Below, piece by piece: positions 6,163-35,736 of a stretch of 64,000 bases of DNA. The notes below the pieces were generated by a model. The model did not search any database. It worked only from the letters and a program-made list of their open reading frames with translations, and was not told where the DNA came from. Location: contig JBHLMN010000013.1 in the NCBI GenBank assembly GCA_048938105.1, positions 96,001 through 160,000 on the forward strand. The letters are read 5' to 3'. The translations under genes and the position numbers were made by a program. The DNA comes from Promethearchaeota archaeon (GTDB lineage Archaea > Asgardarchaeota > Heimdallarchaeia > Hodarchaeales > Hodarchaeaceae). How positions within the stretch are numbered: the first letter of the stretch is position 1; every line of letters begins with the position of its first letter.

Positions 6163-6234
6163 ATGAAAACAATACGAATCGAAGAAATGAACTGGCAAGC
6201 TATTAAGGAAGCCATTAACCAGGATTATAAATAA
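6163..6234 (+). pseudogene. 5' fragment (codons 1-20) of the creatininase-family gene, cut off by the insertion
   Basis: Translates MKTIRIEEMNWQAIKEAINQ|DYK*, the EEMxW N-terminus typical of creatininases; joins in frame to NQ|GYLTVVFGIGSIEQHG at 14629. Confidence 0.88.
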
Positions 6235-6235
6235 C
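6209..6235. repeat. attL of the integrated element (core TAACCAGGATTAT, 6216-6228)
   Basis: 13-bp core, with 1 mismatch, repeated at 14628-14640; TAA-N6-TTATAA geometry. Confidence 0.8.
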
Positions 6236-6342
6236 AGAATGATTTTATTTCCCTCTATTTCTAAAAAACTTGTTACACATGATACAAAATATAATAATCC
6301 CACGTATGAGAGCTTTATTGAATTAAATTTTGGGGATATATG

Positions 6343-7363
6343 CATGATTAAACTTCAATTTAAAATAGTAAACGAGTTTGAAATATCTGAAAATGCAATC
6401 GTTGGGTGGTTAAAGTCAGTTAATGAGTATGAAAGATATTTCTTAGAGAGAAAACACCTAAATCGACGCAACCTCGGCAATTTCGGAGAATTTATTGGCA
6501 AATTCATTCTTGAAAAGGAGTTTATACTTTATCAAAGAAAAACAAGTGATAGAAAAATGATACCTTGGCTTATGTTTGAAAAAGAAAATGTCTTACTAGA
6601 TAGCTATTATCTTGCCAATTTATTTTCAAATATAGAGGATGTGAGTGTTAAATCGAATATCAAAGCATGGTTGGGTGATGAAAAATTTTTATCCTTAAGA
6701 GAACATACAGGAGAGTATTTAGGAGAAATTTCTTTTGAAAAGAGAGTAGAATTGGGATTGGACGCTAATAATCAAATGATCTGCTGGAAAGAATGGAAAA
6801 AAAAGACTCTTAGATATGGACCTTTCATATTCACGTTTAAAGACCATATATTAGAGGATGTAAGGAAATCATTCATTGATTATTGGAAAAGAGAGACTGG
6901 TGCAAAATTAACGCTTACGGATACATTGGGAGTTCCTTTTGAATATTTAATAAAATGGTTCTTCCCAGAGGGGGAGAAAATAGAATATCAAAAGTGGAGA
7001 GAATATTTATACAAACGAGTGCGTTATTTTGACATTTCTTCTTTTTTGGCAAAAAACACTCAAATTGATGTGAATGATTTTATTTGCACAAATAAGGTAT
7101 TTCTCGATTTAGACTTAGATGTTTGGGGGATTCCAAAGGAAAATTCAGATTTTTTTAATAAAAAGTACTTGTATGCAATTGATTATAAATCACATAGGAT
7201 AAAATGTGTTGATCATGGAAAATATCAGACACCAGCTTTATACTTTCAACAAAGGAATTATGTAAAATCTCTCATCTTAACACAGATTGGGGTATTAATT
7301 CTATCTCTTCAATTTTGCGATTGCGGAAGAATATTTTGTAAATATTTAGTCCCAATGGTGTAA
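6343..7363 (+). CDS. PD-(D/E)xK superfamily nuclease-like protein
   Basis: RNLGNFGEF (GxxGE helix), DLDLDVWG and YAIDYKS motifs. Start probably ATG 6343 (MIKLQF); the ORF track start is 6239. Confidence 0.55.
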
Positions 7364-7874
7364 TGTATTCTTTTCAAAATTATAGCATGAGGATTAAATA
7401 GATGAACGTTACCTAATGGTTCATATTTAATGCTTATGGCTCCATTTGATATTGATGGAGAAAAAGCTAATGAATATATTATTAAACAATCTATTAAGTC
7501 TATTATTAGTCTTTTCGGGATTTTCATTAGGCCAATGCAACATCCATACACGAGTATTCTCAGTCTTGAGTAATGCGTTCTATGATCCTGAAATTTTCAA
7601 AGTATTACATAAACAAGGATTACTCGAAAAAACAAACAATATAGGTCAATGGAAGATTAAAGAGTCCTCCTACACCTTTTTACAAATATTTATTTGTAGA
7701 AAGGCTCTTTTATATCTGTTCTTTAAGAAACATATCGCAGTCACTTTTGTTCGGTATATTACTAATAGAAATTTTATAGAATCAATGTATACATTATGTA
7801 TTAGGTACGGGTACCTTACAGACGTAGTGCAAAATCTTAAATAGATGAAACGATTCTTTCTAGACTGATTAACA

Positions 7875-7997
7875 TTGATAGACTTAACGCCATTATATAA
7901 TGGACTTTGGACAATCCTTGGAGTCATTTTAGTCTTAGGACTCATAGCATACTTCGGTGATCTACTAGTATCATTTATAGATAAGATTAGTAAATAA
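7875..7997 (+). CDS. small single-TM membrane protein (40 aa)
   Basis: TTG start; MIDLTPLYNGLWTILGVILVLGLIAYFGDLLVSFIDKISK; below the ORF track cutoff. Confidence 0.4.
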   Translation: MIDLTPLYNGLWTILGVILVLGLIAYFGDLLVSFIDKISK

Positions 7998-8040
7998 TCA
8001 GAATTCAAAATAAAGATGATTTCAAGAGTATGAGGGAAGA

Positions 8041-8079
8041 CCACCTCCTCTCAGTCAGGAGTGGCATTATTTATTTTTT
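8041..8079 (+). terminator. hairpin plus T-rich tract
   Basis: CCA-C-CTCCT...AGGAG-TGG stem followed by TTATTTATTTTTT. Confidence 0.3.
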
Positions 8080-8109
8080 ATAGGCATATTATAGGAATAA
8101 GAGGAGACG

Positions 8110-8373
8110 ATGAGAATGAGTAATCAAATTTGTATAAGCTGTGGCAATAAAGCCAAGTACAATTGCTTGAATTGTAACAGACCAATTTGTGGTAGATGTA
8201 GAAGTAAACAGAAGAAGATCAAGGATGAATCTCTCCTTAGTTTAATAGGAAGTACAGCAGATAGTCTATATTACCGTCCTGCTGGGTTATGTAAGGATTG
8301 TAGACCTATTGTATTAATGAAAAGAGGAATCGATACTTATTTTAAATTGATTGATATAATAAGAATTAACTAA
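8110..8373 (+). CDS. small Zn-finger protein
   Basis: Four CxxC pairs (CISC, CLNC, CGRC, CKDC); GAGGAG RBS. Confidence 0.7.
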   Translation: MRMSNQICISCGNKAKYNCLNCNRPICGRCRSKQKKIKDESLLSLIGSTADSLYYRPAGLCKDCRPIVLMKRGIDTYFKLIDIIRIN

Positions 8374-8390
8374 GGGAGGTTAGATGATTT

Positions 8391-9038
8391 ATGAAATGTC
8401 CGCATTGCACAGTTGAAATATTCGCAGATAAAAAATACGAACAAATTTACAATTTTTCTGATAGAAAAGGAGATTGGAGATTAGTTTTTTTCAAATGTCC
8501 TAGTTGTATGAATTTTACTTTTGATCTAGAGAATGGAAACCGTAGTAAAACTGCGTTTGATATAAAAGAAACAATTAGAGTATATCCTAAAGGCAGCTCA
8601 CGTCCTCCTTGTCCTCAAGAAGTTCCTCAACATGTAGCAGAAGACTATACAGAAGCTTGCTTGGTTCTTATTGATAGTCCAAAAGCCTCTGCTGCATTAA
8701 GTAGACGCTGTCTTCAAAATATTCTTCGAGAAGCTGCTGAAGTTAATCCTAGCAATCTTTCAACAGAAATTCAAGAGGTATTAGATGGTAAAACTTTACC
8801 TACTTACATTGCGGAATCTATAGATGCGGTAAGGAATATTGGTAATTTTGCAACTCATCCAAATAAAAGCAATAGTACAGGTGAGATATTACCCGTCGAA
8901 CCAGAAGAAGCAGAATGGAATTTAGATGTACTAGAAGCATTATTTGACTTTTATTATGTCCAACCAGCTAAGATACAAAAAAAGAAGGGTGCATTAAATA
9001 AAAAATTAAAAGAAGCAGGTAAGAAACCTATGAAGTGA
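8391..9038 (+). CDS. DUF4145 (HEPN-like) domain protein with N-terminal Zn ribbon
   Basis: CPHC/CPSC; DYTEAC...SPKASAALSRRCLQ; RNIGNFATH (R-x-N-x-H HEPN-like motif); GGAGG RBS. Confidence 0.85.
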   Translation: MKCPHCTVEIFADKKYEQIYNFSDRKGDWRLVFFKCPSCMNFTFDLENGNRSKTAFDIKETIRVYPKGSSRPPCPQEVPQHVAEDYTEACLVLIDSPKASAALSRRCLQNILREAAEVNPSNLSTEIQEVLDGKTLPTYIAESIDAVRNIGNFATHPNKSNSTGEILPVEPEEAEWNLDVLEALFDFYYVQPAKIQKKKGALNKKLKEAGKKPMK

Positions 9039-9050
9039 GGAATTAATATA

Positions 9051-9755
9051 ATGACCAAAAAGATCTGTTTTTTAATTTGTCCTATTGGTAAGGAAGGTAG
9101 TCCAGAGAGAAAGAGAGCTGACCAGCTTTATAACCACATTGTGATTGAAATATTGAAAGAATATGATTTTGAAGTCATTAGAGCAGATAAAATCGGTAAA
9201 CCAGGAATAATTACTCTACAGATTATTGAACAGTTAAATAGTGCTGACTTGGTTATTGCTGATTTGAAAGGGCATAATCCTAACGTGTTTTATGAGCTCG
9301 GGATTCGTCATGTCATTGGAAAACCTATAATTCAGATATATCATCCTGATGAACGAATCCCTTTCGATGTATCTGGATTAAGAAGCATTACACTTGATAT
9401 ACAAGACTTAGATAGTGTAAAAAATTGCATAACAGAGCTAAAAGAGCAAGTAGAATCGATTTTGGAAAATCCTGAGGAATTAACATCACCTTATACTACT
9501 GCTATTGATTATCAAACACTAAGATCAAGTGAAAATCCGATTGGAACAGCTTTAGCGGATATCAAAGAAAGTATTGAGAGTCTAAGAACACAAATAGAAG
9601 AATTAGAACATTCTACAAGGTTTGTACCAATAACAAGAACGAGATTTGATTTAAGTAAATATTTTACTGATGACAAAGAACGAAAAGCTTACAAAACATT
9701 GCAAGAGGCTTTTGATGCACAACCAACTAATCAAAACAACAATGACGAGATTTAA
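9051..9755 (+). CDS. nucleoside 2-deoxyribosyltransferase-like (NDT/TIR-like) protein with coiled coil
   Basis: CFLICPIG...VIRADKI...ADLVIADLKGHNPNVFYELGIRH...IPFDV. Confidence 0.8.
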   Translation: MTKKICFLICPIGKEGSPERKRADQLYNHIVIEILKEYDFEVIRADKIGKPGIITLQIIEQLNSADLVIADLKGHNPNVFYELGIRHVIGKPIIQIYHPDERIPFDVSGLRSITLDIQDLDSVKNCITELKEQVESILENPEELTSPYTTAIDYQTLRSSENPIGTALADIKESIESLRTQIEELEHSTRFVPITRTRFDLSKYFTDDKERKAYKTLQEAFDAQPTNQNNNDEI

Positions 9756-9810
9756 AGCTTATTGCAATGATTACTTACTGAGTACATTAAGGATAGCGAA
9801 TCCTAATATC

Positions 9811-10371
9811 CTATTCCTCTTCTTCTACTTCATTAATTTCATTTAATTCTCTTGATTCTTCAATTAATGGTTGATGCTCGTTCTCCACACTTTTAGTTTC
9901 TTTAATCTCTCCTCTGTGGACATAAAACATAATAGTTAAAAGGAACATAAGGATTATGAAATATACCATAATTCCATTGGTAAATGAGGAGGAATAAGTA
10001 AATATTTCATCTAATGCATAATGCCCTTCCATAAAGTAAATGACCAGAGTAATAATACCTATCACTGATAAAATTATTGTCACAAGGATAATATGTCTTC
10101 CTATTATCTTATTTCTTTCATTTCCAAAGAAAGTATTTACTAGAAAAACGTACGAACTGAAAACACCAATTGTTAAGATCAACCAATTTTGCATTTCGGT
10201 TGGATCATAGGACAATCCATAATCGAGAAAGTATTGCAACATTATAAGACCACAGATAACGAAAGTAAAGCAGAGTGCTTCTTTGTAAGCCTCTTTTAAT
10301 CTTTGAGTATCAAACTTATTCCTAATTCCCTCTAACCTCATCTTGATCTTTTCTCCCATTAATATCAACAA
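9811..10371 (-). CDS. hypothetical 4-TM membrane protein with acidic tail
   Basis: Four hydrophobic segments; Glu-rich C-terminus; start uncertain (10371 or 10359). Confidence 0.65.
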   Translation of the reverse strand: MLILMGEKIKMRLEGIRNKFDTQRLKEAYKEALCFTFVICGLIMLQYFLDYGLSYDPTEMQNWLILTIGVFSSYVFLVNTFFGNERNKIIGRHIILVTIILSVIGIITLVIYFMEGHYALDEIFTYSSSFTNGIMVYFIILMFLLTIMFYVHRGEIKETKSVENEHQPLIEESRELNEINEVEEEE

Positions 10372-10528
10372 GTGTTTAAGAAAAACTCAGTTATTCAGTT
10401 AAATAAGCCTTTCGAACGCAGAAGAACTCTAAATGTTTTCTCCTGATTACGTACACCTCCCTCCTAATTGTTCATTGAAGTTTTGTTATATTCAATTCCT
10501 GAAATCAGGAGTTTTAATTTAGAACTTC

Positions 10529-11932
10529 TTAGAGAAATCCTCTCCTAATTTCTTTAGATATTTTCTCATAAGTCTTAGGGTTAATGTCAGCCCTTAGAAG
10601 AAGTAAATCAGAAATAGGCTGCCTAATCCCAAAATTATCGAATTTAGAGATGACCTTAATAGCGATCTTTGTGGTAATAATCTCTAAAATCTGATTTAAT
10701 TTTGGGTTTAATTCTTCAAGATTTTCAACGTATATAATTTCTGCTCCTGGCTTGACTCTGGCAAAATATTCTTGAACTTCAGGTGCAATCTTCTTTGTTG
10801 ATACTATTATCGCATAATCAGGTTTATAGAGACCAATTCGGCCTCCAAAAGGATACGCATGTCCCATTGAAAATTCGTTGTCCTTAAGTTCAAACATTAG
10901 CAATGTTCCCTCTAGATCAATAAAAGCATCTATTTCCTCGGTTCCTTCTAATAAATTAAGCAATATTTTATCTCTAGGAATACCGAGCTCGATTAATACT
11001 CTTACTAATTTAGCTGTCATCCAATAGCTATGATCTAACATTCTTTTTAAATCATCTGTCGGACTAAAAAGCGTTTCTATTCTTTCTTCAGATATTGGAT
11101 TACCACAAGAACACAAAACACCCATTTGGGTCATTTTTTCGATCGAATCTTTCGATTGAACTCTATTAATTTGGTTTGAAGTTTTATTACAAATCACAAC
11201 ATACTCTTGTGAAAGGAGATTAACCTTTGTCAATTCTTTAATGATTTCTTGAACTTCTTCTACTTCCCTACCTGCCTTTTTTTCGAGATCTGTGGCTAAT
11301 ATCCCACCTGATCTTTTTATTAAAAGAGCTAGATGTCTAATTGAAGGATTTTCTAGGTATATTGATAGCTCAAGATCATCTTCAGATATATTATTTGAGG
11401 GAATAAACCTTGTTTCTTCACTATTAGAGAGCCCTTCAAATTTTTGGTTTACTGTCTGAAGTTCTTCCCAAGCAAAAGTTAAATCAAGGTCATTTAATAT
11501 TATATTTAAACTGTTTAATAGGTTTTCAAGCTGATCAGGACTCTCATCAACTTTAAGACAACCTACCTCAAGAAAATATTTTCCCTTTTCATCTTTAGAA
11601 TCACCTTTTCTTTCTTCTTCTTCTTTATTTACTAGGATATATAGAAAACCATGTTCATTAGGAGTGTAATAAAGGTCTCCAATTATAGGATTCAAAGATT
11701 CTTTATAATATCTAAAAAGAGAGTAAGATCTATAGATAAAGTCTATCTCCAAATCTCTCATTTTCCTTGTTTTTAAATCTGATTCCTCAACACCGAATGT
11801 TTCAAAAAATCTCTTCTCAGCTTTCGATATTAACGGGTTGAATCCCTCTTCAGCTAGTTTATCTATAATAGAGTCGAAATATTCTATTTTATAATCAAAA
11901 GGAGTTATTTTCCTTTTTATTTTTATTGTCAT
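10529..11932 (-). CDS. multidomain protein: wHTH, Zn ribbon and C-terminal PD-(D/E)xK restriction-like nuclease
   Basis: LATDLEKK...IIKELTKVNLL (wHTH); CNKT...CSCG; EEIDAF...FELKD catalytic motif. Confidence 0.7.
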   Translation of the reverse strand: MTIKIKRKITPFDYKIEYFDSIIDKLAEEGFNPLISKAEKRFFETFGVEESDLKTRKMRDLEIDFIYRSYSLFRYYKESLNPIIGDLYYTPNEHGFLYILVNKEEEERKGDSKDEKGKYFLEVGCLKVDESPDQLENLLNSLNIILNDLDLTFAWEELQTVNQKFEGLSNSEETRFIPSNNISEDDLELSIYLENPSIRHLALLIKRSGGILATDLEKKAGREVEEVQEIIKELTKVNLLSQEYVVICNKTSNQINRVQSKDSIEKMTQMGVLCSCGNPISEERIETLFSPTDDLKRMLDHSYWMTAKLVRVLIELGIPRDKILLNLLEGTEEIDAFIDLEGTLLMFELKDNEFSMGHAYPFGGRIGLYKPDYAIIVSTKKIAPEVQEYFARVKPGAEIIYVENLEELNPKLNQILEIITTKIAIKVISKFDNFGIRQPISDLLLLRADINPKTYEKISKEIRRGFL

Positions 11933-12081
11933 TGTTAAACCCCTCTCTAAATGTACGGTTTTTCGGCTTTACTTAAAAAATCTCTTATTTAACCAAAGAT
12001 ATTTGTTCCCCTTGTTTTTATCTTTAGAATAATACTAATTCTTTAGTCTCATGATTATTTCTCTTAAATATCTTAATTAGA

Positions 12082-13157
12082 TTAGGTCGGAGTAACCTTA
12101 AGGAATCCAAAACCAATTAACTCTTTTATCAAGTCCATTGCTTTTGCTTTTAGCATATCTTTATCAAAAGAGATGTAACCTAAATCACTAAAATCACTGG
12201 CGAGACTTACTCCTGTTTCTTTAAGAATAACAATTTTTTTCCCGTATAAAACACCAGCTGCTCCTAATTCGAATACTGCATTATCACTCGGTCTAAAAAT
12301 CTCATTATCATTCTCATCAATGTACTTTTCATCAGCAGTGAATATTACAATCGCAGATGTACATTTATGCATCAAATCAGCTATTTTTTCTGATATGGGA
12401 CGTCCTATATGTGGTTCATCAACTGCAACGCTGTAAGGAACTTTAAATTCATCTAGTATGTTCTTAAGTTGCTCCAGTGGTTTTCTTTTTTTTCCATGAA
12501 TTATAAAAATCTTGTTAATATGTGGTTTTTCAATTAGAATAGCAGGGGGTGCTTCTACAGGCTCCTCTTCTTTCACCACTAATCCAAGATCTTCCATTTC
12601 TTCTAGTTCAGAGATCTCTTCATGCGTTGCTGGTACTCTAGTAGAAAGATTATCTAATCGTACATATGTGCTACCACTAATATCTTCCAAGATACCTAGT
12701 TCTGTTCCATTTTTAGTAATCATCTCATAACAAGTTGTGACATCATCCTCAGGAATTTTAAAGTCTCTAGTAAATGTATTCTGGATAGGTTCTAATTGGG
12801 GGAATTTATGAGTATCGTAACGCTCGAAAAATACTTTGAATACTTTAATAGAAAGCAAAGCCTCAAGAAGTGCATTATTTTTCTCTTCAATATTTTGTGA
12901 AGCAACTATTGATCTACCTCGTTCCGTTAGTGAAACACTCTTTGCAGCAAACTCCCTTTCGTAAGACCAAATTGACCTGAAGCAGTTATAAGGTTTCTGA
13001 ACCAGCTACTTGTTGGTGATTGCTCCAAAACCTTTGCAAGGTCTAAAATAGCATATGGTTCTCCTGCATTATAATCCTGGATCGCTTGTGCCACCCTTAC
13101 TGAATCCATTAAACTCTTTCTGGGAAATAGACTTTTTCTTCTCTTTTTCTTAGCCAA
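12082..13157 (-). CDS. TIR-domain (CAP12/Pycsar-like nucleotide-binding) protein with N-terminal wHTH-like region; frameshifted at about 12950
   Basis: IFIIHG...AIVIFTADE...RPSDNAVFELG...SDFSDLGYI. ORFs 12927-13157 and 12082-12858 join into 358 aa (GS-FAAKSVSLTERGRSIV) if one base is added in the 3-base run at 12949-12951. Confidence 0.75.
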
Positions 13158-13202
13158 TTCCTACTCACCTAATTCTTTAATGTTATTTTATGTTATTCTC
13201 CC

Positions 13203-13601
13203 TTAAATTCTACCAAAAATAATCATTAAAAGAAATATAATAAATGCAATCGTAAGAAAAAAGCTAGTAAACCCCGAACCACCACTCATTGTATATATGT
13301 CTCTTCCTAATTTGGTAGTTTTTTTAACACGATTATAATTTCTGGTTGGCGATACAACATCTGTGATGGCTTTTTTTGTTTCTTTTTTAACTCTTGAAGA
13401 TGCCAGTCTTTGTTTAGTAAAATCCGACCACGATTTATTTCTTTTAATTTTACCATATCTGTCAAAAGACATCGCTCTTGTTTTACCACGAACGTTTATC
13501 CTTCGCCAATCCTCTTCTTCACCACCTTTTATTGCTGCAAGCTTAATAATTATTAGAATTCCGATTATAGCAAATACTAATATAATTATTTCCTCAATCA
13601 T
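13203..13601 (-). CDS. hypothetical protein with N- and C-terminal TM helices and a basic loop
   Basis: Hydrophobic termini; Arg/Lys-rich centre. Confidence 0.6.
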   Translation of the reverse strand: MIEEIIILVFAIIGILIIIKLAAIKGGEEEDWRRINVRGKTRAMSFDRYGKIKRNKSWSDFTKQRLASSRVKKETKKAITDVVSPTRNYNRVKKTTKLGRDIYTMSGGSGFTSFFLTIAFIIFLLMIIFGRI

Positions 13602-13893
13602 GGTGAGACCCCTATACTTTTACCAAATTAGTAAGAAATCTGATTGTAAGTTATTTACCTTACTCACATTACTCTAACCAATTTCTCGGTCATGTTCTCT
13701 AGGAAAATCATCTATTTAAGATTTGCCTTCTAAGAGCTATATTCTTGTAGTGCCTAACTTCTGTACCTAAGGCCACCATATTTAAAATAATACATTCTTT
13801 AAAAAAGAATTAAAAGCCATTAAATACTCTATTCATAATAAGAAAGGTGATTTGATAATGAAATAAAATACTGAGGCTATTTTGACATTATTT

Positions 13894-14385
13894 TCATATA
13901 CCATTTAATTTAAAGATCAAAGAGATTGTGAAAAACAGAAAAAATATAAGAAACAACGATTCACCAGTGAAATAAGCACGATTGCACCATTTTTCTTTGT
14001 TGAGAACAAATTCAACTAATAATTCCTTATTTTTGAGTTTTCTCCATTCACTGGCCTTAATCTTTAGATGTTCTAAATAAGATTGTTTTTTTCCATTTTT
14101 ATCCAAGGGAAAATGGCTTTTAAACAGATAAAAATTGCCAGTAATCTCGTCATGATTGCTTCTAATGTACATAATTACAATTAACCAGACAATAGTAATT
14201 AGTAGAAAGATAATCGTATAAAATCCTAGATCTGCTCTCCAAGCAAAATAAACCATTCCAATACTGAGAGTAAATAGATAGTGTGTAAACGATAATCTAG
14301 TTTGTAGTCTCTCTTTAACAGCGGAAACAAGATATTCAAAGATCTTATCATCTAAATCAACTTCGTTTTGTTTATTATTAGACAT
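13894..14385 (-). CDS. hypothetical membrane protein (3 TM)
   Basis: Hydrophobic segments; GGTG RBS upstream. Confidence 0.65.
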   Translation of the reverse strand: MSNNKQNEVDLDDKIFEYLVSAVKERLQTRLSFTHYLFTLSIGMVYFAWRADLGFYTIIFLLITIVWLIVIMYIRSNHDEITGNFYLFKSHFPLDKNGKKQSYLEHLKIKASEWRKLKNKELLVEFVLNKEKWCNRAYFTGESLFLIFFLFFTISLIFKLNGI

Positions 14386-14619
14386 ATCAACACCTAATTA
14401 CACTTTAATTTATCTGATTCCCTCTATCCTTCTATTTTTATAGCACAAGTGATTATAAAAGTACTTATAAGAAGGAATTACCTAAAGAAATAAATAAACC
14501 TTTCGAACACAGAAATATACAATTTGTTGGCAAGATTTTGCGTGGTGTGTAGTTCACATATGCTGAAACAGCTGAATATACAGGTTTTTGTTTTTTTTGA
14601 CTTCACTTTTGAAGTCATT

Positions 14620-14647
14620 TTTGATTATAACCAGGGTTATTTAACAG
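14620..14647. repeat. attR of the integrated element, dif-like 11-6-11 (TTTGATTATAA CCAGGG TTATTTAACAG)
   Basis: Core matches attL at 6216-6228; coincides with the start of creatininase homology. Confidence 0.8.
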
Positions 14648-15324
14648 TAGTTTTTGGGATTGGATCTATTGAACAACATGGACCTCACTTACCAACCAAC
14701 ACGGATGCCTTAATTGGTGATGTTCTAGCTAATAAAGTAGCAGAAAGATTAAAGAATGCTTTACAAGCCCTTACAATGCGGGTAGGTTGTTCGCGTCATC
14801 ATATGGCTTTTCCTGGCACAATTTCGTATAAAGATTCAACTTTGAAAGCTGTTATCCACGATTATGTGCATAGCTTAGTACATCACGGTTTTAAGAACAT
14901 TATTTTAATCCCTAGTCATGGAGGGAATTTTAGACCAACACAAGAAGCGATTGATGAGCTCAAAGAAGAGTATCCCGATAGTAAAATTATTGGTTATACA
15001 GATCTTTTTGGGCTCTTGGATGCTTTACATAGATTTTCAGGGGAATTTGGCGTCACAAAAGAAGAATCTGGAGCACACGCAGGTGAATCTGAAGCTTCTC
15101 TTATGTTAGCTTTGGCAAAAGATCTTGTTAAAGAAGAATCTTTCGAACCTGGATATGTTGGAATAGTTGGACCAGAACAATCACAACTTATTTTTGAAAA
15201 GGGAATGACTGCATTAACAAAAAATGGTATTTTAGGAGATCCAACAAAGGCAACAAGTGATAAAGGCGAAGTATACCTTGAAAATCTAGTAAAACTTCTT
15301 GTTGACGAAATTAAAAGGAATTAA
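14629..15324 (+). pseudogene. creatininase/MftE-family amidohydrolase, 3' part of the interrupted gene
   Basis: GSIEQHGPHLPTNTD, HHMAFPGTIS, SHGGN, HAGESE and NGILGDP motifs; native N-terminus lies at 6163. Confidence 0.88.
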
Positions 15325-33801: not shown

Positions 33802-35736
33802 ATGAAAAAAGCTTTTATGGTTACCAAGTTGGGAAAAACATCCAAAACTAAACTACAGATCATTTTTTTTCTCTTGTTGTTGATATTAATCGGTTCTCTG
33901 ATTCTACTAATTCTGGAAGTGTTTCCAACCCCCTCTGATCGTATACAATTTCCAACACCAGATTATAAAGGTCATTTACCTTTAAGTACTGCCATACATC
34001 AATCTAAACCATCTCAAGATCTCAGGAACCATATAATTGAAAATAAAAGTATTTCTCAGTTAATGTGGGCTCTTCAAGGCGAAACACACGGCCCTCGTTT
34101 CCGAACTGTGCCTTCTGCTGGTGCAACATACCCCCTGGAAATATTCATTGTCAGTAATGGAACATCTGCTCTTAAGAAAGGGAATTATAATTATATTCCT
34201 CAAGGGCATCAACTGAAATGTATTTCTTCATCGTACAATTGGACAACATTACTTTCAGCACTTTTTAGTGAAGACCAGGAGGCAGTATCCAATGTGAGTA
34301 CTATATTCTTTATTTTGGCTGATTATAATCGTACTACTTTCAAATATAAAGAAAGAGGATATCAATATGTACATTTGGAAGTAGGGCACGCTATTCAAAA
34401 TTTCCTTTTACAACTGGTTTCTTTAAATTTGAAAACAAGAATAATAACAAATTTTGCCTCACAAAAAATCCAGGAATTTCTAGATACAACGCTAGAACCA
34501 ATGGTAGTGCTACCTGTTGGCATTAATGGAGGTTCTAGCTCTCCTTTCGTTAAACTCAAACAACTTAGTTCAAGTAACACAGAAGAAATGACTGTTGAGC
34601 AAGCTATTGCTAAACGTGAATCTGTGAGAGATTATCAAAGTGGGAAAATTCCCCTCTCGGTAATTTTAGATGTGTTAGAAGATAGTATCACAATTCCTCA
34701 CATTGTTGGAAATAATTCCCAGTTCGATTTCCGTTTAGTAGCTAATGCTATAGATGGATTACCAATCGGTTCATATCAGTATTCTCTAGAAAAAAAATCT
34801 TTATATCAATTATATCAAGGAGATTTACAGTCTAACATCACGGACATGATTTCAAGACAATCATGTGTTGTATTAGCTCAATTAGATGCTGTTATCTCGG
34901 TTGATGAAGATTGGATAAATCAACAAGTTGATTCTCGTTTTTCTCGTAGAATTATGATGTATGATGTTGGTATGATAGCTCAAAATATCTATCTCAAATG
35001 CGCCGCTACTGGTCTAGGGACAGTTGTTATTGGTGCTTTTTCCGAAAGTGGGTCTTCTCAACTCTTAGATATTCCTAGAAAATATACTCCAATCTATGTT
35101 ATACCGATTGGTCTGACACCTGATTTCTTTGAGGAACCAACTGGCTTTCAGCTTTCATTATCAGAAATGGCAAGGTGGACAGGTCTATTGTTATATGTTC
35201 TCTTCTTTATTAGCCTATATCTATCCCTTCCTTTGTTAAAGAAACGTTTGAAAAAGAAAATACGTTGGTTACATTGCATATTTGGCATAGTCGCTTTAAT
35301 AGGAGGTATTTTTCATTATATGATTATTCATGGTCATGTTTACAATCTTTGGGAATTTCTAAACGTAACTTCTTATTTCAATGCTCTGATTTACTTCGCA
35401 TTTAACTTGTTTTCATTTCCAGAGACTCAATATGATGTAGGGATGCTCATGGCAAAGCTCACTGTATGTTTTGGAATCATAGCTGTTATTACTGGGATTT
35501 TGTTTGCTTTCAAGCTGGTTAACCAAAGGAAAATTGTTCGTGCAACTCACAAATATATTATCTTCTTCACATTAATCTTTGCGATTATTCATAATATGTT
35601 AAACGGAGTGATTTTTGCCACTGAGCCTTTTATTTTCCTTTTACTCAATATAATGGCCATTGATCTATATTTTCTGTTATTAGTCTCTCCTGATTTTATC
35701 AAAACTTCTCAGAAGAAGGATCTTTTTTATCAATAA
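33802..35736 (+). CDS. tandem SagB/ThcOx nitroreductase-fold domains fused to a cytochrome b-like membrane domain
   Basis: RTVPSAGATYPLE, EVGHAIQN, AIAKRESVRDY, AQNIYL..AATGLGTVVIGAF; C-terminal TMs with two H-x13-H pairs. Confidence 0.8.
   Translation: MKKAFMVTKLGKTSKTKLQIIFFLLLLILIGSLILLILEVFPTPSDRIQFPTPDYKGHLPLSTAIHQSKPSQDLRNHIIENKSISQLMWALQGETHGPRFRTVPSAGATYPLEIFIVSNGTSALKKGNYNYIPQGHQLKCISSSYNWTTLLSALFSEDQEAVSNVSTIFFILADYNRTTFKYKERGYQYVHLEVGHAIQNFLLQLVSLNLKTRIITNFASQKIQEFLDTTLEPMVVLPVGINGGSSSPFVKLKQLSSSNTEEMTVEQAIAKRESVRDYQSGKIPLSVILDVLEDSITIPHIVGNNSQFDFRLVANAIDGLPIGSYQYSLEKKSLYQLYQGDLQSNITDMISRQSCVVLAQLDAVISVDEDWINQQVDSRFSRRIMMYDVGMIAQNIYLKCAATGLGTVVIGAFSESGSSQLLDIPRKYTPIYVIPIGLTPDFFEEPTGFQLSLSEMARWTGLLLYVLFFISLYLSLPLLKKRLKKKIRWLHCIFGIVALIGGIFHYMIIHGHVYNLWEFLNVTSYFNALIYFAFNLFSFPETQYDVGMLMAKLTVCFGIIAVITGILFAFKLVNQRKIVRATHKYIIFFTLIFAIIHNMLNGVIFATEPFIFLLLNIMAIDLYFLLLVSPDFIKTSQKKDLFYQ

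Follow-up and report, generated by a model that had tools for sequence, protein, structure and literature searches.

Integrative mobile elements exploiting Xer (IMEX) carry no recombinase of their own and have been described in bacteria only. The skin element of Bacillus sigK and the nifD, fdxN and hupL elements of heterocystous cyanobacteria encode their own recombinase, are conserved at their locus and are excised in the course of development. Integron cassettes and clusters of attC sites lacking an integrase (CALINs), including those of archaeal integrons (PMC9668308), are small, promoter-poor modules, toxin-antitoxin pairs among them, that are delimited by a repeated recombination site, form arrays, are shuffled between genomes and contain no recombinase gene. 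The modules bounded by pdif/dif sites on plasmids of Acinetobacter are alike in this. In an Asgard archaeon, the Yucahu-i element of Atabeyarchaeia encodes a tyrosine integrase and has been seen excised and circular in reads (PMC11529989). Asgard genomes are large and rich in bacterial genes, and the route by which those genes are taken up is an open question. Here we describe an 8,412-bp insert that splits a gene of the creatininase family in a member of the Hodarchaeales (assembly GCA_048938105.1, contig JBHLMN010000013.1), encodes no recognisable recombinase and ends in a dif-like site that bounds exchangeable modules in many genomes of the same genus. The window, to which coordinates without a contig label refer, is the stretch of 64,000 nucleotides from position 96,001 to 160,000 of that contig.

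Like IMEX, this insert has no recognisable recombinase of its own. It would also share with them a dif-like attachment (att) site, with one good and one degenerate arm, and integration by a tyrosine recombinase of the chromosome; the target side presumably contributed the junction spacer, as happens when strands are exchanged at one spacer boundary. In contrast to IMEX, which integrate at chromosomal dif, the insert occupies a weak pseudo-site in a coding gene, its host is archaeal, and its cargo consists of defence genes rather than a phage. The term IMEX is absent from the archaeal recombinase review, the Xer review gives IMEX for bacteria only, and no description of an archaeal Xer-exploiting element was found in the papers searched.

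The likeness to integron cassettes and CALINs extends to every property listed above, but the site is a double-stranded 11-6-11 site of dif type and not a folded attC, there is no conserved IntI-type integrase with an adjacent attI, and the copy studied here lies inside a gene, outside any array. As with the skin and nifD/fdxN/hupL elements, a coding gene is divided at a short core by several kilobases of DNA, whose precise removal would regenerate the open reading frame (ORF); unlike them, the insert has no recombinase that could be found and is absent from relatives. Yucahu-i shares with it an Asgard host, a size of ~8-11 kb, an AT-rich att core of ~11 bp at both ends and defence or accessory cargo, whereas the present element has neither an integrase nor an excised or circular form that was seen. 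The literature on Asgard mobile elements describes integrase-bearing elements, viruses and aloposons, and no mention of sites such as those reported below was found in it.

A creatininase-family gene split at a short shared core

The interrupted gene and the insert comprise the following features.

6163..6234, plus strand: 5' fragment of the creatininase-family gene, with 20 native codons (6163-6222) followed by DYK (three codons from the element) and TAA; its N-terminus matches that of intact orthologues
6224..14635, no strand: inserted module of 8,412 bp, its ends ambiguous by the 8-bp core (6216/6224 to 14627/14635)
14635..15324, plus strand: 3' fragment of the creatininase-family gene, 229 codons and a stop, intact; the translation begins GYLTVVFGIGSIEQHGPHLP

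The gene is interrupted after codon 20, with its pieces at 6163-6222 and 14635-15324. The first of these translates to MKTIRIEEMNWQAIKEAINQ, after which the frame enters the insert and meets a stop codon at 6232-6234. The 3' piece matches the Pfam family Creatininase (PF02633) over profile positions 17-236 of 238 (E = 3e-61), and since the part of the profile that it lacks is the N-terminal stretch supplied by the 5' piece, the match becomes full-length once the two are joined; "creatininase" is used here as a family name taken from this match and implies no substrate. The 8-bp core TAACCAGG is found without mismatch at 6216-6223 and 14628-14635, a spacing of 8,412 bp, and is followed by A or G and then by TTAT, so the two junctions share a 13-mer with one mismatch. 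Deletion between the cores produces an ORF of 249 amino acids free of stop codons.

This arrangement had been read from the letters alone in a first-pass annotation of the window, which proposed the split gene, the common core and the 249-residue frame, and comparison with relatives now bears out all three. Over its whole length, the joined ORF can be aligned with orthologues that are intact and syntenic in no fewer than four congeners. These represent empty sites: G014, G009, G015 and G011 encode proteins with 82, 82, 78 and 74% identity to the 3' piece, respectively. These orthologues carry both pieces contiguously, as in the protein MKTIRIEEMNWQDVKEAINQGYTTVV, and the DNA of G014 runs uninterrupted through the insertion site (GCAATTAACCAGGGGTATACAAC). 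Synteny includes an upstream alpha/beta hydrolase gene on the other strand and downstream genes for a GFO/IDH/MocA oxidoreductase and dihydroxy-acid dehydratase; what had been called a catabolic gene cluster downstream is a conserved neighbourhood only. A repeat search of the region did not rank the 8-bp core, and so short a repeat is unremarkable in 9 kb of AT-rich DNA; the core is significant because it is located exactly at both break points of the gene. The insertion is precise, with no base lost or gained and with clean, reciprocal junctions, and the GC content is ~0.29-0.35 in the insert against 0.34-0.45 in the flanks.

Foreign DNA has thus been inserted into a coding gene at a short shared core, and a filled/empty pair in a coding gene is what is new at this locus. 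The same gene, intact in sister species and split here, amounts to a natural experiment that places the crossover within 8 bp. That the assembly has instead joined unrelated DNA inside the gene is scarcely credible. The status of the genome as a metagenome-assembled draft of 65 contigs with 7% contamination speaks for an artefact. Against it, a single contig of 185 kb holds both halves of the gene in one orientation, and their junctions are reciprocal about the core that they share; two independent chimeric joins would not give this result.

The right end is a dif-like site that bounds modules throughout the genus

The first-pass annotation had overlooked that the right end of the insert is a copy of a genus-wide, dif-like module-boundary site. 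In canonical form this site consists of an arm of 11 bp, the spacer CCAACG and a second arm of 11 bp; one arm is of the type TTAAACGACAT, and the other falls into a few classes. The right end of the insert carries an arm of class c, TTTGAnTATAA, which is preceded by GAAGTCAT boxes and by a conserved region of ~130 bp:

14492..14619, no strand: conserved site-adjacent non-coding region, with copies of 72-77% identity in this genome (G000) at C6:239885 and C3:5803, and others in G006 and on a metagenome contig, beside unrelated cargo

Long copies of the last ~140 bp of the insert are present in this genome at C6:239885 (77%) and C3:5803 (72%), together with several short ones; further copies of the right end occur across the genus and on one metagenome contig. 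Copies with the ~150-bp end in common have unrelated cargo. This genome has seven good class-c copies including the present one, and the others all continue ...TATAACCAACG. Every other copy of the end has ...GAAGTCATTTTTGAnTATAA-CCAACG, often followed by TTAAACGACAT or a variant of it. A fully symmetric 11-6-11 copy, ATGTCGTATAA-CCAACG-TTTAACGACAT, is located at C53:230109. With up to three mismatches allowed, the pattern TAACCAACGTTAWACGACAT was detected in 20 of the 21 genomes of the genus, and its hits far outnumber those of a reversed control (20 vs 0 in this genome, 19 vs 1 in G011, 11 vs 1 in G009).

Arrays of the site bound modules of ~1.5 kb in G009 and G011. In the closed genome G009, three copies 1.5-1.7 kb apart bound a PIN toxin-antitoxin pair, a single gene, and a PadR-like gene paired with an RDD gene, as judged by eye from the translations. 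Between species, homology stops at the site in four pairs of loci. Among them, L029 and L023 are 99% identical across 400 bp upstream of it and unrelated downstream, and the pairs L024/L043 and L030/L036 are 94-97% identical downstream of it and unrelated upstream. Interspecies homology thus breaks exactly at the site. Taken together, these results identify recombination sites at the boundaries of exchangeable modules, and the split gene, compared in its filled and empty states, agrees with the site being the breakpoint. At one further locus (L049, G009:C1:3941382-3941421, minus strand) a class-c arm is followed by the spacer in reverse, TGTGTATAA-CGTTGG, which is what site-specific inversion between oppositely oriented sites would leave. 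A scan of the element itself detected no canonical site in its interior; a site near 35,268 in the window falls within an ORF and is probably there by chance. Two conserved stretches of the insert, 7533-7698 and 7933-8051, were considered as additional sites; they correspond to the remnant of a gene plus terminator and to other intergenic DNA that is shared.

The pair of GAAGTCAT boxes just outside the class-c arm (14600-14618) is inverted, ATGACTTCAC TTTT GAAGTCAT, while other copies have the boxes in direct orientation, ATGAAGTCATTTTGAAGTCAT; the box also occurs in L047 of G009 (positions 6547, 8080 and 9816) and in L048 of G011. Since the boxes are inverted in some copies and direct in others, they are likelier to bind protein than to form an RNA hairpin. 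By analogy with the accessory sequences of cer and psi (PMC5357621), the ~130-bp region may act as a platform for accessory factors. A small RNA encoded in the right end, such as a bridge RNA or a guide RNA, was also considered and found no support: a search of the whole element against Rfam returned nothing at E up to 1, folding of the right end on either strand gave z-scores of -1.35 and -1.11, and the consensus fold of five right-end copies (-6.7 kcal/mol) has no covariation support.

Anatomy of the junctions

The two junctions read as follows in terms of the arms and spacer of the site.

6208..6235, no strand: attL, GAAGCCATTAA / CCAGGA / TTATAAATAAC, with a gene-derived left arm, the spacer and a weak element-derived right arm; a poor site, with a score of -19.2 on the class-c matrix
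14620..14647, no strand: attR, TTTGATTATAA / CCAGGG / TTATTTAACAG, with a canonical class-c arm, and with the spacer and right arm from the gene

At attR the conservation shared with other copies stops at TATAA|CCA, and gene sequence follows. The metagenome contig has the same variant of the arm, TTGATTATAA, next to a canonical CCAACG spacer and unrelated cargo, which fits a junction spacer supplied by the target side. Of the core TAACCAGG, three bases are the innermost of the arm, and the other five fall in the spacer of six. Strand exchange at the boundary of arm and spacer, in which each side kept its own spacer and right arm, would explain this position. The target in the gene, TAA-CCA..G-TTAT...ACA, looks like the site in its inner arm bases and in 7 of the 11 positions of one right-arm variant (compared by eye), and its spacer is matched by the element's own at five of six positions.

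A matrix for the site was built from 24 other class-c sites and scored over 11.7 million positions of the genome. It ranks attR 8th and the reconstructed circle junction, attP, 68th among these positions, and places the reconstructed empty target, attB, in the top 0.5% and attL in the top 5%. The reconstructed attP combines the canonical class-c arm with a variant spacer and a weak second arm. The junction sequences predicted in this way are GCCATTAACCAGGGTTATTTAAC for attB and TGATTATAACCAGGATTATAAATA for attP.

Two simpler origins of such junctions have to be weighed at this point. One is that DNA in broken or circular form was joined to the gene at the 8-bp TAACCAGG, illegitimately or through microhomology, with no site-specific enzyme and with the disrupted gene as a dead end. 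We regard this as unlikely. The poor match of the target to the site, the non-canonical spacer and the failure to find an excision product would fit, but the junction coincides exactly with the boundary between arm and spacer in a site that is the breakpoint at other loci as well, both junctions are clean and reciprocal without loss or filler, and the inner TAA/TTA bases are kept in the target on both sides of the spacer. The other is a transposon for which TAACCAGG would be an 8-bp target-site duplication. An 8-bp direct repeat does flank the insert, but the bases TAACCA belong to the conserved end in all other copies and are there followed by ACG at any locus, which is unexpected for a duplicated target; no terminal inverted repeats are apparent when the ends are compared by eye, and no transposase was found, making a transposon highly improbable.

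Probable mobilisation in trans and candidate enzymes

Pfam and PADLOC searches revealed no mobility enzyme (tyrosine or serine recombinase, transposase) in the 8.4 kb, although some of its small ORFs belong to no family, and a recombinase was not found by two ESM-Atlas look-ups, an exhaustive HMMER search or a fold search either. No enzyme able both to cut and to rejoin DNA was thus found in the element. Nor were tyrosine or serine recombinase genes detected near it or near the other class-c ends of the genome, and the window has no tRNA gene that could be a target. A right end that is a module-boundary site, together with the missing recombinase, points to an integrase-less module mobilised in trans and not to a self-contained element.

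We consider it probable that the insert is a module of the cassette system and entered a weak pseudo-site through a tyrosine recombinase acting in trans, for which XerA and a second Xer-like integrase are the candidates. In the mechanism that we infer, an integrase-less cargo module of the dif-like site-specific recombination system common to this Hodarchaeales genus would have taken a circular form with attP = TTTGATTATAA-CCAGGA-TTATAAATAAC. The circle would have recombined with a weak look-alike in the creatininase-family ORF, attB = GAAGCCATTAA-CCAGGG-TTATTTAACAG, by strand exchange inside the shared TAACCAGG, i.e., at the arm/spacer boundary, and the reaction would have been catalysed in trans by one of these two tyrosine recombinases, both of which are encoded in the chromosome. 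Tyrosine recombinases generally require that the spacers of the two partners match, as is the case for Cre, Flp, lambda Int and Xer, and a spacer that has drifted could for this reason have sent the module to a new location.

The XerA orthologue (C14:173919-174839) matches Pyrococcus abyssi XerA (4A8E) with E = 1.9e-59. The second Xer-like integrase (C56:201270-202139; E = 4e-21 to Thermoplasma acidophilum XerA) has a site 530 bp upstream and more within 15 kb. A third tyrosine recombinase gene in the genome contains an internal stop codon. In the region around the second integrase (L059, C56:186000-204000), the further sites at 197796, 189247 and 188087 are all on the same strand, an integron-like layout.

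Several observations weigh against insertion of a module by such an enzyme. The spacers CCAGGA (attL) and CCAGGG (attR) depart from the canonical CCAACG at two to three of six positions, the left end of the element itself amounts to a weak right arm, and the resemblance of attB to the site is modest (the top 0.5% noted above), so the argument is carried mainly by the exact position of the junction. That the chemistry is that of a tyrosine recombinase is suggested only by the 11-6-11 architecture of the site. As to the choice of enzyme, almost every genome of the genus has both XerA-type genes and the site, so that their co-occurrence does not discriminate between the candidates. The second integrase type, unlike the site, is scattered in the genus, and within 1.5 kb of its relatives in other genomes no site was detected, the integron-like layout not being conserved; this speaks neither for nor against a dedicated integrase. 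In the assembly, attL and attR are the only junctions present, with no attB or attP and hence no circular form or empty allele, and a degenerate pattern for the attB, attP, attL and attR junctions found no match in a metagenome collection, from which records of the source genome are perhaps absent.

Should the enzyme be XerA, the element would be an archaeal counterpart of bacterial IMEX. With mobilisation in trans, the locus indicates that modules can land outside arrays, can carry defence genes without a recombinase, and can inactivate, perhaps reversibly, a conserved metabolic gene; it also supplies defined attB, attP, attL and attR substrates. We tentatively advance a broader proposal, which is rather doubtful as a whole: modules would be exchanged on dif-like sites throughout the Hodarchaeales genus with no integrase in the modules, possibly by XerA; modules with a drifted spacer (CCAACG to CCAGGA) would be redirected to new targets, coding genes included, where they would act as reversible interrupters; and the region with GAAGTCAT boxes would be the accessory platform. 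If this is true, the split gene and its empty sites would be the first filled/empty pair in which the crossover point of an Xer-exploiting element from archaea is placed within 8 bp.

A nuclease-like protein next to attL

The first gene inside attL has the following product.

6344..7363, plus strand: 339-aa protein predicted to contain a split PD-(D/E)xK nuclease core with a large insertion, and probably a C/H zinc site; its predicted fold resembles Hjc

Gene callers start this gene at the ATG at 6344, and the frame is open back to 6239. The protein belongs to a very rare family: an exhaustive HMMER search recovered six relatives among 1.84 billion representatives, and their alignment conserves E, D, (D/E)xK, Q, C, H and CxC residues. 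A model of the 374-aa open frame from the single sequence was uninformative, with a predicted local distance difference test score (pLDDT) of 33.6, whereas a model built with the family alignment reached 77.5. Foldseek comparison of the latter with the PDB gave no row at E up to 0.001. In a fold search the best match was the archaeal Holliday-junction resolvase Hjc (1gef; Z 6.8 over 91 residues, root-mean-square deviation 3.1), and the other top rows were splicing endonucleases, VRR-NUC proteins and restriction enzymes, nearly all of them PD-(D/E)xK enzymes. The best matches have Z of 5.8-6.8, each under the level that would be safe if taken alone, and ESM-Atlas structure rows agree at low template modelling (TM) scores; taken together, these predictions are consistent with a PD-(D/E)xK nuclease.

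This protein raises the question of whether the element mobilises itself by an unrecognised enzyme of its own, with the Hjc-like 339-aa nuclease (junction-resolving or homing-type) as the first candidate and a nuclease-like protein of 467 aa as the second. The position of the gene directly inside attL speaks for this, as do its top folds, archaeal Holliday-junction resolvases (Z 6.8) and also the homing endonuclease I-Ssp6803I; in the integrated element of another Asgard lineage, a junction resolvase gene adjoins the integrase gene (PMC11529989). Self-mobilisation is nevertheless quite improbable. The gene was not found beside other class-c ends, whose cargo is different and which resemble the insert over the ~150-bp end only; its relatives lie on short contigs without such sites, and the family has just six members in 1.84 billion representatives. 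Moreover, cleavage by PD-(D/E)xK nucleases is not followed by precise rejoining of the DNA, and fold matches with Z below 8 are not decisive.

Excision and the state of the split gene

Recombination within the cores would, as far as the sequence goes, restore the ORF exactly. The split gene has no sign of decay: the ratio of nonsynonymous to synonymous substitution (dN/dS) is 0.08-0.16 between the joined ORF and its orthologues, compared to 0.07-0.11 among the intact ones (a coarse measure, with dS near saturation), and lineage-specific residue changes number 11 in the split gene and 7-13 in the other orthologues. The genome has no second copy of this orthologue that could be found, and one distant paralogue only (38% identity over ~100 residues). 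The insertion appears to be either recent or reversible, and these data fit both.

The first-pass annotation had likened the insert to skin-type gene-interrupting elements. What stands of this comparison is the precise insertion whose removal would restore the ORF; neither a recombinase in the 8.4 kb nor a product of excision was found. As a programmed intervening element of the skin or nifD type, the insert would be excised under some condition and so re-activate the creatininase-family gene. The exact restoration of the ORF by excision at the core and the undecayed state of the gene (dN/dS and the 11 lineage-specific changes, as given above) would fit, but a recent insertion would account for the undecayed gene just as well, and neither the defence-type cargo nor the poor attL site, nor the lack of an element-encoded recombinase, is what such an element would have; the insert is absent from all congeners examined, and the arrangement is accordingly not conserved. 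A programmed element is very unlikely on these grounds. Excision at a biologically meaningful rate is possible, although the odds are somewhat against it. Both arms of attL are poor, and the module may therefore be trapped, with excision inefficient; that the assembly holds no empty allele or circle, and that no junction of attB or attP type was found in the metagenome collection, also argue against efficient excision.

Remaining cargo of the insert

In addition to the 339-aa gene, the insert contains the following features.

7446..7700, plus strand: 3'-end remnant of a gene and a terminator-like hairpin, 79-87% shared with intergenic DNA of G009 and G018
8110..8373, plus strand: 87-aa zinc-finger protein, with a borderline match to the B-box family PF00643 (24.5 bits vs a cut-off of 24.1)
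8391..9038, plus strand: 215-aa DUF4145 protein, a PD-T7-4-like defence candidate (PF13643, 5e-14; PADLOC PDLC04109, 1.9e-21)
9051..9755, plus strand: 234-aa protein, TIR-like or nucleoside 2-deoxyribosyltransferase-like, with a coiled-coil tail (Pfam match weak, below cut-off; PADLOC TIR effector, 2e-8)
9811..10371, minus strand: 186-aa multi-pass membrane protein of no known family
10529..11932, minus strand: 467-aa protein without a Pfam family, from a widespread family of hypothetical proteins
12082..12858, minus strand: 258-aa CAP12/Pycsar-type TIR protein, PADLOC candidate PDC-S35 (PF10137, 1e-17; PADLOC, 3e-20)
12927..14385, minus strand: three small ORFs of 76 aa, 132 aa and 163 aa, the last two encoding membrane proteins; no family

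The 467-aa protein, named above as the second candidate for an own enzyme, was compared in the ESM-Atlas, where it scored 0.98 by features and where structure TM values were 0.73 to unnamed clusters and 0.39 to Card1_endonuc clusters; the predicted structures of its family resemble nucleases of the Card1 and Mrr types. Its gene is flanked by the two TIR-type genes (9051-9755 and 12082-12858). Judging from the predicted folds, these could form a defence pair of TIR signal and nuclease effector, of a type that PADLOC does not hold as a system. The B-box domain, which the 87-aa protein matches at borderline score, is typical of eukaryotic TRIM proteins, and in this Asgard defence module the gene lies directly upstream of that for the DUF4145, PD-T7-4-like protein.

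A direct repeat of 47 nt (72% identity), which contains AAATAARCCTTTCGAACRCAGAA, is found at 10377-10423 and 14468-14514. Read on the other strand it resembles a promoter with a B recognition element (BRE) and TATA box, and its copies precede two minus-strand genes, whose starts are at 10371 and 14385. As a hint of its archaeal nature, the genome encodes elsewhere, at the locus L004 (C61:201837-203316), a large surface protein with beta-helix repeats and a PGF-CTERM-like tail (SSPGFELGLVIFIIICG...).

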